Virus record (IMG/VR): IMGVR_UViG_2671180847_000001 | Location: 1-7,473 of that record | Strand: one strand, 5' to 3' | From: a virus | Lineage: Monodnaviria; Loebvirae; Hofneiviricota; Faserviricetes; Tubulavirales; Inoviridae | Length of the DNA: 7,473 nucleotides | Shown: piece by piece, positions 2,523-3,971 of the stretch | Layout of the letters: every line of letters starts with the position of its first letter | How positions within the stretch are numbered: the stretch's first letter is position 1 | The notes under the pieces: generated by a model | Databases searched by the model: none | Told to the model about the DNA's origin: nothing | What the model saw: the letters and a program-made list of their open reading frames with translations, nothing else | Position numbers and translations under genes: made by a program

Positions 2523-2756
2523 TTATTTTTTCCCTGGGCCTGGTGTCTTTGTTGATGACTTCATGTCTCTGACAGCTTCTTTCAGATACTCATCCATGAG
2601 ATAGAACGCCATGTCAGTCCATTTCACCATGCGTCCGGTAGCATAGCTGACTTCAATAGCGGCTTTCTCTAGCTCCATTTTACGTTCTTCCGGTACTCGT
2701 AGGGACGTGTATTTTTTCTCAGCCATAAATCTAGTCTTTGTGTGTTTTGGGTTCAT
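2523..2756 (-). CDS. Small DNA-binding regulator, ribbon-helix-helix-like (putative prophage repressor/regulator)
   Basis: 77-aa ORF divergent from the rep gene. The segment KYTSLRVPEERKMELEKAAIEVS has a beta-strand-then-helix pattern typical of CopG/Arc-type RHH proteins (by eye). Alternative start at 2726 (MAEKKY..., 67 aa). No clear Shine-Dalgarno for either start. Confidence 0.5.
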   Translation of the reverse strand: MNPKHTKTRFMAEKKYTSLRVPEERKMELEKAAIEVSYATGRMVKWTDMAFYLMDEYLKEAVRDMKSSTKTPGPGKK

Positions 2757-2846
2757 GCATGTTAGTTACATTGCATAAAAATAGCGATGCGCTCTTGTAT
2801 GCATGTTTGCATCTGTTGTATAAAGTATCCAAATATTCTTGTATAC
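2757..2846. promoter_or_regulatory. Divergent promoter/operator region between regulator and rep genes
   Basis: Three TTGTAT(G/A) direct repeats starting at 2795, 2816 and 2839 (spacing 21 and 23 bp), including 12-mers CTTGTATGCATG (2794-2805) and CTTGTATACATG (2838-2849). ATGCAT/TTGCAT motifs at 2755, 2771, 2800 and 2807. Plausible plus-strand promoter TTGTAT (2795-2800) - 18 bp - TATAAA (2819-2824). Confidence 0.45.
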
Positions 2847-3971
2847 ATGGATGCTATGTTTTTTGATTGGTTGAGTATTGAGCAAGATTTTGGTTATCAG
2901 CTGCCCATTCTTTCAGATGTGGCATATCAGCGTATTCACCTCGATAGCGGGGAGGCTAGCGCCTTGTCTCAACCAACTTTTCAACATCGCGGCTCTTTCT
3001 GTGACGTGGTTTCGATCTCAATCCGTGGTTCAGTGTTAAAAATGACTGGAAATCCTTCTCGTTGGGGGCGTCTTGATAATCTTTTTGGACTACCAACAGT
3101 AGATGCTTGTGTCATGGTATTTAATCAGATTCTTAGTGATCTTAAATTGCCACTATTTACTAAGTGTACAAAATTGATGCATGGGCAATCTAAAGAGAAT
3201 GAAAAGGCTCGTGTAATCGTAGATGGTGCCTTAATTAAAGAGTTGCATATAACATCAAATAGATCTGTCGGCAAGGGAAATGAGGATGATTATATTTCCG
3301 GTCTTTCTACGCAAACATATCGACATAGTGTTCCTCGACTGCATTCTAATGGGAAATCAGTTGATTGGCTTTCCAAAAAAGGTAATGTCAATCTTATATA
3401 CCCAACAGTGTATAACAAAGCTCATGAACTTGAATTGCATAGCCTTGTAAAAATTAAAAATAAATTCTCTGAAAATTCTGCAGAATTTAAATATTTTATT
3501 GATGTTATTAATTATTGTAAAGAAAATGGAATTATCAGATTTGAACAAAAATTAAAATCGCGTTTTTTGCAAAAACATGCTTTATGTTTTTGGGGGTTAT
3601 CTGATTATTCTTTATTAAATAAGTTACATTCTGATTTTCTTAAACTTGATGAAAAATTATCGGTGAATGCTATGGACTTTGAAACTATTAGTGAACATCT
3701 TGTTAGCCGCGGCATTGTAGATACTACTCGCGCAGCGAACACTACAGCAATGTATGCTATTCAATGGTTTCATGGGCATGTTTTTGACTTAAATAAAAAA
3801 CAAGTACAAACACACCGAGCAAGGTTAAGAAAGATTGGTATTGATATTGCTCAGAAATGCAATATTTCTAAATTTTCTCCTGTGGTTGTCAAACAAACAA
3901 GGGAAATTAAAGTTTCTGATTGTATTATTCCATCCTGGTATCTGAAACCATCACATCTTCGTGTAGCGTAA
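2847..3971 (+). CDS. Putative rolling-circle replication initiation protein (pII/RstA-like)
   Basis: Large ORF (2787-3971) at the position of gene II, immediately upstream of the ssDNA-binding and coat genes and divergent from the regulator. Start placed at ATG 2847 (MDAMFFDW...) because the first 20 codons overlap the operator repeats and putative promoter; 2787 and 2856 are alternatives. Function assigned by synteny and size only; no catalytic motif verified. Confidence 0.55.
   Translation: MDAMFFDWLSIEQDFGYQLPILSDVAYQRIHLDSGEASALSQPTFQHRGSFCDVVSISIRGSVLKMTGNPSRWGRLDNLFGLPTVDACVMVFNQILSDLKLPLFTKCTKLMHGQSKENEKARVIVDGALIKELHITSNRSVGKGNEDDYISGLSTQTYRHSVPRLHSNGKSVDWLSKKGNVNLIYPTVYNKAHELELHSLVKIKNKFSENSAEFKYFIDVINYCKENGIIRFEQKLKSRFLQKHALCFWGLSDYSLLNKLHSDFLKLDEKLSVNAMDFETISEHLVSRGIVDTTRAANTTAMYAIQWFHGHVFDLNKKQVQTHRARLRKIGIDIAQKCNISKFSPVVVKQTREIKVSDCIIPSWYLKPSHLRVA

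Follow-up and report, generated by a model that had tools for sequence, protein, structure and literature searches.

A small regulator gene lies divergent from the replication gene of an If1-like prophage

The DNA analyzed here, IMG/VR record IMGVR_UViG_2671180847_000001 (positions 1 to 7,473, the whole of which is called the window), holds an If1-like filamentous prophage of the Inoviridae integrated at the dif site of Escherichia coli beside hipBA. Its replication initiator gene, rep, occupies 2856–3971 on the plus strand and is preceded on the minus strand by a small gene (2523–2726) predicted to encode a ribbon-helix-helix (RHH) DNA-binding protein, referred to here as the regulator. The 129 nt between the two start codons (2727–2855) form a divergent control region that contains two copies of an 8-bp palindrome, TGYATRCA, as candidate operators. 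An original prediction made from the sequence alone had proposed a divergent regulator and rep gene separated by operator-like repeats, and both open reading frames (ORFs) exist in that arrangement. Related loci (designated by L numbers) were drawn from viral contigs, genomes and assemblies, together with Escherichia phage If1 (L001, NC_001954) and Alteromonas phage phiAFP1.

The longest minus-strand ORF at this position (2523–2756) would encode 77 amino acids, and the earlier proposal had left open a 67- or 77-residue protein. The shorter form, which starts at Met11 of the longer one (MAEKKYTSLRV...), is the PGAP annotation and has the conserved start. The 10-residue extension (2727–2756) is missing from homologs or unrelated among them, and the 77-residue form was dropped on these conservation grounds; the corresponding DNA is probably non-coding and provides the 5' leader and promoter-proximal sequence of the regulator gene. 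The protein matches phrog_2503 (E = 1e-27), an inovirus-associated family listed in PHROGs as of unknown function, and an exhaustive profile search gave 97 clusters at 50% identity, nearly all of 55–85 residues. The size of the family, its conserved start and length, and its synteny divergent from rep indicate that the gene is real.

The regulator had been proposed to be an RHH rather than a helix-turn-helix (HTH) protein, and structure prediction, named at the outset as a way to refute this, agreed with it. The AlphaFold2 model (mean predicted local distance difference test score, pLDDT, 88.8) has the RHH topology, with residues 1–12 extended and helices at 13–30 and 36–59. A first structure model had the same topology, and its top five structural matches were likewise RHH proteins. 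The strand was not called by DSSP in the monomer model, as expected for a monomer. The predicted structure resembles solved RHH domains, and the closest structural matches include the RHH antitoxins MazE7, ParD/PrpA, KacA, TacA, MazE9, and RelB; a Foldseek search of the PDB returned no significant match. The best PDB profile matches, TTHA0139 (E = 0.019, full length) and ParG (E = 0.09), both fell below significance, and a literature search on TTHA0139 yielded nothing useful. CopG and Arc align in register with the regulator family. The glycine of the inter-helix turn (G31) is invariant in 14-sequence alignments of close homologs, and the wider family has the consensus ...SxxTGxxxKWTD.... No HTH family was matched. 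Searching Pfam with 71 family members gave one weak PutA-RHH match and one weak ParG match, and no consistent family. Based on the models, we conclude that the regulator is a predicted RHH protein of a family that Pfam does not capture.

Rep (371 residues) belongs to the gpII/G2P family, with matches to Pfam G2P_X_C (2e-25) and Phage_CRI and to phrog_702 (9e-104, residues 1–368). The longest rep ORF begins at 2787 (2787–3971), and the original prediction had argued for a downstream start at 2847 or 2856. The latter proved to be the better choice. ATG 2856 (MFFDW...) is the PGAP start, DNA homology to If1 rep begins exactly there, and every relative aligns from Rep residue 1 with MFFDW or MFYDW. 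ATG 2847, in contrast, does not share the rep frame in either L008 or L011. On these conservation grounds, neither it nor 2787 was retained as the start.

The control region contains two palindromic boxes 44 bp apart

The window has just three copies of the heptamer TTGTATR (2795, 2816 and 2839), separated by steps of 21 and 23 nt. This number is at the level of chance (3.18 copies expected) and only the clustering is unusual: when the prophage part was simulated 4,000 times under a first-order Markov model, three or more copies fell within 51 nt in 9 runs. Two related hexamers are over-represented in the control region: ATGCAT (2755 and 2799) has two of its six window copies there compared with 0.10 expected, and TTGCAT (2771 and 2807) has two of 12 compared with 0.21 expected. 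The repeats and hexamer cores reported earlier were thus all present, but the proposal that three TTGTAT(G/A) copies at two-turn spacing form the operator gave way to a different arrangement. Two of the three heptamers lie within an 18-nt direct repeat, TCTTGTATGCATGTTTGC (2793–2810) and TCTTGTATACATGGATGC (2837–2854), whose copies are 44 nt apart. The core of this repeat is the dyad-symmetric octamer TGYATRCA, which occurs in exact form at only two places in the window. The distal box, TGTATGCA (2796–2803), is at −60 from the rep ATG and overlaps a putative −35 element, TTGTAT (2795–2800). The proximal box, TGTATACA (2840–2847), is a perfect palindrome at −16 in the predicted 5' leader of rep, directly upstream of a GGAT Shine-Dalgarno-like motif. 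These two boxes are the putative operators.

On the regulator side, a block at 2752–2779 contains two boxes with one mismatch each, TTCATGCA (2752–2759) and TGCATAAA (2772–2779), which are candidate autoregulatory sites. The block is identical in the window, L003–L005 and L006, and an exact TGTATGCA occupies the corresponding position in L008 and L009. A tandem arrangement resembling that of MetJ, with TGTATGCA followed by TGTTTGCA (2804–2811), was also considered and was rejected since relatives do not preserve the second box.

Box positions are conserved and box sequences change in concert

In all loci with readable context except L028 and L029, which are short contigs with the upstream gene on the same strand, the regulator is divergent from the replication gene over a spacer of 114–161 nt (121–161 nt in 13 related loci). 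Box conservation was assessed in a closer set of 14 spacers, while box pairs in distant loci were read from a listing of 7-mer repeats. Exact TGYATRCA was present two or three times in 13 of the 14 closer spacers (shuffle P ≤ 0.018 for each), and in the same proportion of spacers the proximal box was exact, between −16 and −19 relative to the rep ATG. Eight lineage groups have an exact distal box at −59 to −63, and L008–L010 and If1 have one at −71. Footprinting across the closer relatives showed that CTTG at the start of the −35 element, GTATAA at the −10 element and TTGyATACATG at the proximal box are invariant, with drift in the DNA between them.

Paired boxes were seen in about a dozen lineages, including If1 and phages with Rep_trans initiators. 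The If1 pair, TGTATACA and TGCATACA, has the 44-bp separation found in the window. Analogues of the proximal box abut the rep start in L013, L014, L018, L019, If1, phiAFP1, and L030. The pairs persist where Rep is only 32–35% identical (L011 and L023) and with initiators of another Pfam family, Rep_trans (L013 and L026/L027). In several lineages both boxes are altered together: TGTGTACA occurs twice in L021, TGTACACA twice in L018 and CGTATAC twice in L014, and L016 has TGAATTCA. Further lineage variants are AGAATAC/GTATTCT in phiAFP1 and TGAGTAA in L030. Concerted, lineage-specific change of both boxes argues for a phage-encoded specificity factor, as opposed to Rep, a host factor or generic promoter elements, and points to the boxes belonging to the phage's own regulator. 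Two simpler regularities were considered and dropped: constant helical phasing of the two boxes, whose spacing ranges from 35 to 52 bp, and a simple code relating strand residues to box sequence, since If1-type (RTTMAI) and window-type (KYTSLRV) strands share one box class.

The boxes lie at putative promoters

A rep promoter of the form TTGTAT-18 bp-TATAAA overlapping the repeats had been suggested, and positional conservation supports it. The motif TTGYAT-17/18 nt-TATAAA/TATATT/TATACT recurs in L013, L014, L018, L019, If1, and phiAFP1. In the window, the putative −35 element is at 2795–2800, the −10 element at about 2819–2826 and the predicted transcription start near 2831–2833. The −10 element falls in the middle TTGTATA repeat (2816–2826, plus strand), as either TATAAA (2819–2824) or TAAAGT (2821–2826). 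None of the distant loci examined keeps this repeat as a palindrome, so it is read as a −10 element and not as a third operator.

The putative −10 element of the regulator is TAACAT on the minus strand (2764 to 2759), replaced by TAATAT or TAAAAT in relatives, and it is flanked by the degenerate boxes at 2752–2759 and 2772–2779. Among 18 loci, 8 have their best minus-strand −10 element ending 26–38 nt before the regulator ATG. With this placement, transcription of the regulator would begin near 2752, past the ATG at 2756, which fits the 67-residue start, and the position of the −10 element between the boxes suggests that the regulator is probably autoregulated through 2752–2779. Scanning for consensus sigma-70 promoters and for terminators gave no promoter call within the spacer; terminators were likewise not found.

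The prophage is integrated at dif and resembles phage If1

The window begins with E. coli hipB (1–267) and hipA (267–1589). Identity to ordinary E. coli chromosomes ends at 1679, within GGTGCGCATAATGT on the XerC side of dif. From 1665 onward the sequence corresponds to a 7,439-bp unit present as tandem copies in E. coli strain 2196 (L002, NZ_CM142896). Among 5,426 complete E. coli genomes, just 4 matched at least 80% of a 2.7-kb query. The prophage–host junction (1665–1765) lies 77 nt past the hipA stop codon and consists of GGTGCGCATAA (the host XerC arm), an 11-nt spacer and TTATGTTGAAA, followed by an inverted dif-like partner site and a perfect 14-bp GC-rich stem (1696–1709/1722–1735). 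The start of the unit has three inverted repeats nested within one another, and these pair the two dif-like sites around the stem. A folded single-stranded attP with such an architecture is known for CTXphi, and the junction repeats resemble it; the same site divides the tandem prophage copies. The window has a full-length hipA, while in strain 2196 the gene (8160–8990) carries the annotation of a truncated "HipA N-terminal domain" protein. The two hipA regions align only over window positions 1–646 and from 1135 onward, indicating an internal deletion in strain 2196.

The gene order past the junction includes the gpII/G2P-family Rep, a single-stranded DNA (ssDNA)-binding protein, an Inovirus coat protein B, a DUF2523 protein in the pVI position and a Zot/pI-like protein. 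A secretin gene is also present downstream in strain 2196. Two cargo ORFs without a family match lie on the minus strand between attP and a conserved 58-nt element: one of 136 codons (1970–2380), with homologs of 36–40% identity in just two related loci, and a hydrophobic one of 68 codons (1767–1973) with none. An identity with CUS-1/YpfPhi, guessed from the dif location, was dropped since the closest phage is If1.

The 58-nt element (2449–2506, plus strand) lies directly 3' of the regulator gene and also occurs at L001 5052–5109 and L025 15–60. It is 98–100% identical to the If1 copy and ~98% identical to that of the Alteromonas phage, while neighboring genes are ~75% identical or unalignable. 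It adjoins the regulator gene in 11 loci, including phiAFP1, and it recurs in unannotated DNA of 435 plasmids, of which 390 are conjugative. The element folds into two ssDNA hairpins (z = −2.46). A search of the whole window against Rfam (E ≤ 1) returned one chance match (2241–2295) and nothing for the control region or the 58-nt element. Phages and conjugative plasmids both enter cells single-stranded, from which we would guess that the element is a complementary-strand priming signal (ssi or minus-origin).

If1 (Infulavirus) is the closest sequenced phage. Its Rep protein is ~80–92% identical to that of the window, DNA identity of the rep genes, starting at the ATG, is 74.5%, the ssb gene is related, and the 58-nt element is shared along with the box pair. 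Its regulator homolog (5119–5310, minus strand) is unannotated and lies in what is termed the "major intergenic region." If1 differs in having an IS200/IS605 insertion element between the regulator homolog and the boxes and rep, ~20 nt upstream of the regulator start codon. The IS200 Y1 transposase is encoded at 5388–5831 (minus strand), and "ORF348" of the If1 record is TnpB (OrfB_IS605 plus a Cas12f-like TNB domain). To our knowledge, If1 does not occur as a prophage, and a literature search on If1-like dif prophages gave nothing useful. Separation of the regulator from its boxes and rep by the insertion might explain why If1 is not temperate. The If1 rep gene is split by a frameshift in the database (7316–7537 and 7461–8432), with the annotated "ORF320" lacking the MFFDW N terminus; this is probably an old sequencing error.

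A proposed repressor switch and its alternatives

From the gene and its predicted fold, the boxes, the conservation of their positions and their concerted change, we infer DNA binding, repression, autoregulation and a role in lysogeny for the regulator. The specific proposal that RHH dimers repress the rep promoter through the two boxes, with probable autoregulation, is assigned a probability of about 0.68. In this mechanism, the paired N-terminal strands of regulator dimers would enter the major groove at TGYATRCA. One box (2796–2803) would cover the −35 region of the rep promoter and the other (2840–2847) would lie in the rep leader, ~8–17 nt past the predicted transcription start and ahead of the ribosome-binding site, so that occupation of both would bracket the promoter and silence rep together with the ssb/structural operon downstream. 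Shut-off of rep would reduce rolling-circle replication and virion production and keep the prophage quiet. The weaker boxes around the regulator's own promoter (2752–2779) would probably mediate autoregulation, and the differences in box sequence between lineages would probably set immunity specificity.

Several observations weigh against this proposal. The regulator has no match in Pfam or NCBIfam, its sequence links to RHH proteins are below significance and the RHH model is that of a monomer, from which a dimeric ribbon cannot be read. The phrog_2503 family is experimentally uncharacterized, and the authors who described phiAFP1 found no similarity for their homologous ORF (PMC9769780). The 35–52-bp spacing means that the boxes lack constant helical phasing, and the putatively DNA-facing strand residues differ between If1-type and window-type proteins that share one class of box. 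Promoter position weight matrix scores in the AT-rich spacer were no higher than in shuffled sequence and the consensus scan was also negative; with neither significant, the promoters are placed solely by positional conservation. There is no SOS box in the spacer, with CTGT-N8-ACAG (≤1 mismatch) occurring only at 4085 in ssb. Finally, regulator homologs in the non-integrating phages If1 and phiAFP1 make a lysogeny-specific role unnecessary. Given these episomal homologs, the general role of the family may be control of rep or copy number, with maintenance of lysogeny a special case.

The presence of the family in non-temperate If1 and phiAFP1 would also suit an accessory role in origin function or DNA processing (like that of TraM, TraY, relaxosome RHH proteins or ParG), in which the RHH protein binds the palindromes and bends DNA to help Rep nick or load at a plus-strand origin nearby, and any effect on transcription is secondary. 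Such a role could draw on the ultra-conserved, origin-like hairpin that flanks the regulator gene and is common to conjugative plasmids. It is nevertheless considered unlikely: boxes on the −35 element and in the rep leader, in lineage after lineage, have the classic geometry of repressor sites; the same class of box accompanies two unrelated initiator families (G2P and Rep_trans) that would need different origins; and the boxes diverge between lineages as immunity determinants do. The persistence of the boxes with a Rep that is 32% identical or from another Pfam family also weighs against the view that the palindromes are not bound by the small protein, which would then act elsewhere. In that view they would be part of the promoter architecture, autoregulatory or origin sites for Rep, or host-factor sites. 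If1 does keep the boxes although its regulator shares just 38% identity and differs in the strand residues, and the distal box coincides with a −35-like TTGYAT hexamer, so that the promoter alone could explain part of the conservation. However, the proximal box lies outside the promoter hexamers, the concerted changes in L021, L018, L014, and L016 are unexpected for a host-factor site or generic promoter element, and the L026 regulator, which has an If1-like strand, also adjoins boxes of the TGYATRCA class. This explanation appears quite improbable.

Binding by the regulator need not mean repression, and some RHH proteins activate transcription. The predicted −35 element (TTGTAT) and 18-nt spacer of the rep promoter are poor, and the promoter might need help from an activator or dual switch protein. 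But a box over the −35 element and a second past the start site are in positions typical of repression, and the analogous proteins (RstR, other inovirus regulators, and CopG) are repressors, making activation very unlikely. The structural matches raise one further reading, as many of the closest are RHH antitoxins. The regulator could be the antitoxin of a type II toxin–antitoxin pair, with the palindromes as its autoregulatory operator and the 136- and 68-codon ORFs, both downstream on the same strand, as toxin or cargo. Neither ORF matches a toxin family, a 142-nt gap with the conserved hairpin element divides the regulator from the next ORF, and the strongest boxes are on the rep side instead of at the regulator's own promoter. 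With homologs of the larger ORF restricted to two other loci, none for the smaller, and both absent from If1 and phiAFP1, an antitoxin function is hardly credible.

Comparison with known systems

The original prediction likened the locus to the repressor–rep pairs of CTX-type phages, and the resemblance holds in part. As in CTXphi RstR/rstA, a small regulator is divergent from the initiator over a short operator-bearing spacer, and operator sequences vary by lineage as in CTX heteroimmunity. CTXphi integrates at dif through host XerCD, and the two systems share dif integration, tandem arrays and an inverted pair of dif-like sites resembling a folded attP. The likeness does not extend to the proteins. 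RstR is an HTH protein, as are the repressors of well-studied inovirus rep switches, whereas the regulator is a predicted RHH protein with no sequence similarity to RstR; the spacer here has no LexA box; and Rep is of the gpII/G2P family, whereas RstA is a Rep_trans protein followed by RstB. Repressors in the rstR position are themselves non-homologous between CTX subtypes (PMC12715192), and an omega-like RHH protein, ORF13, was noted previously in Pseudomonas inovirus PMBT54 (PMC10534721). In two metagenome contigs from Logan/ENA (L026 and L027), a member of the regulator family is divergent from a small ORF followed by an RstA-like Rep_trans gene, and in L026 the latter is followed by a CTX_RstB-like gene, with Zot also carried. 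This gene order indicates that the regulator takes the position of RstR in a CTX-like replication module.

A parallel outside the inoviruses is CopG (RepA) of plasmid pMV158, a small RHH protein that controls transcription of the rolling-circle initiator gene repB from a pseudo-symmetric operator element over the −35 region, and that aligns in register with the strand and helix A of the regulator family. The two differ in that copG is cotranscribed with repB, whereas the regulator and rep are on opposite strands, and in that CopG multimerizes on one contiguous operator, whereas two separate 8-bp boxes ~44 bp apart are found here. There is also no significant sequence similarity (hhalign probability 5%). 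MetJ, Arc, Mnt and omega share the predicted β-α-α topology, and the 8-bp palindrome recalls the met-box of MetJ, but the boxes here are separated and not in tandem, and the C-terminal helix of the regulator (36–59) is longer than in minimal RHH proteins.

Taken together, these comparisons allow a broader and more tentative reading, which we regard as doubtful in its entirety. Across a broad clade of inoviruses that either integrate at dif or are episomal, from Enterobacterales, Aeromonas, Vibrio, and Alteromonas, members of phrog_2503 might serve as the master immunity and lysogeny repressor, possibly in place of RstR even where a CTX-like module has RstA and RstB. Heteroimmunity might then be set by the sequence of the pair of 8-bp palindromes that brackets the rep promoter, and If1 might be derepressed because IS200/IS605 cut the repressor off from its promoter and operators.

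A small RHH repressor acting on a replication-gene promoter is a conventional type of mechanism. The analysis defines an unstudied RHH family, without a Pfam model, that reaches into the classical laboratory phage If1, and it identifies a concrete and testable candidate operator, TGYATRCA placed twice around the putative rep promoter. The natural variants TGTGTACA, TGTACACA, and TGAATTCA are available as candidate specificity determinants for immunity-swap work. Repressor–rep switches set the balance between silence and virion output in temperate filamentous phages, whose virions carry toxins or shape biofilms in several pathogens.

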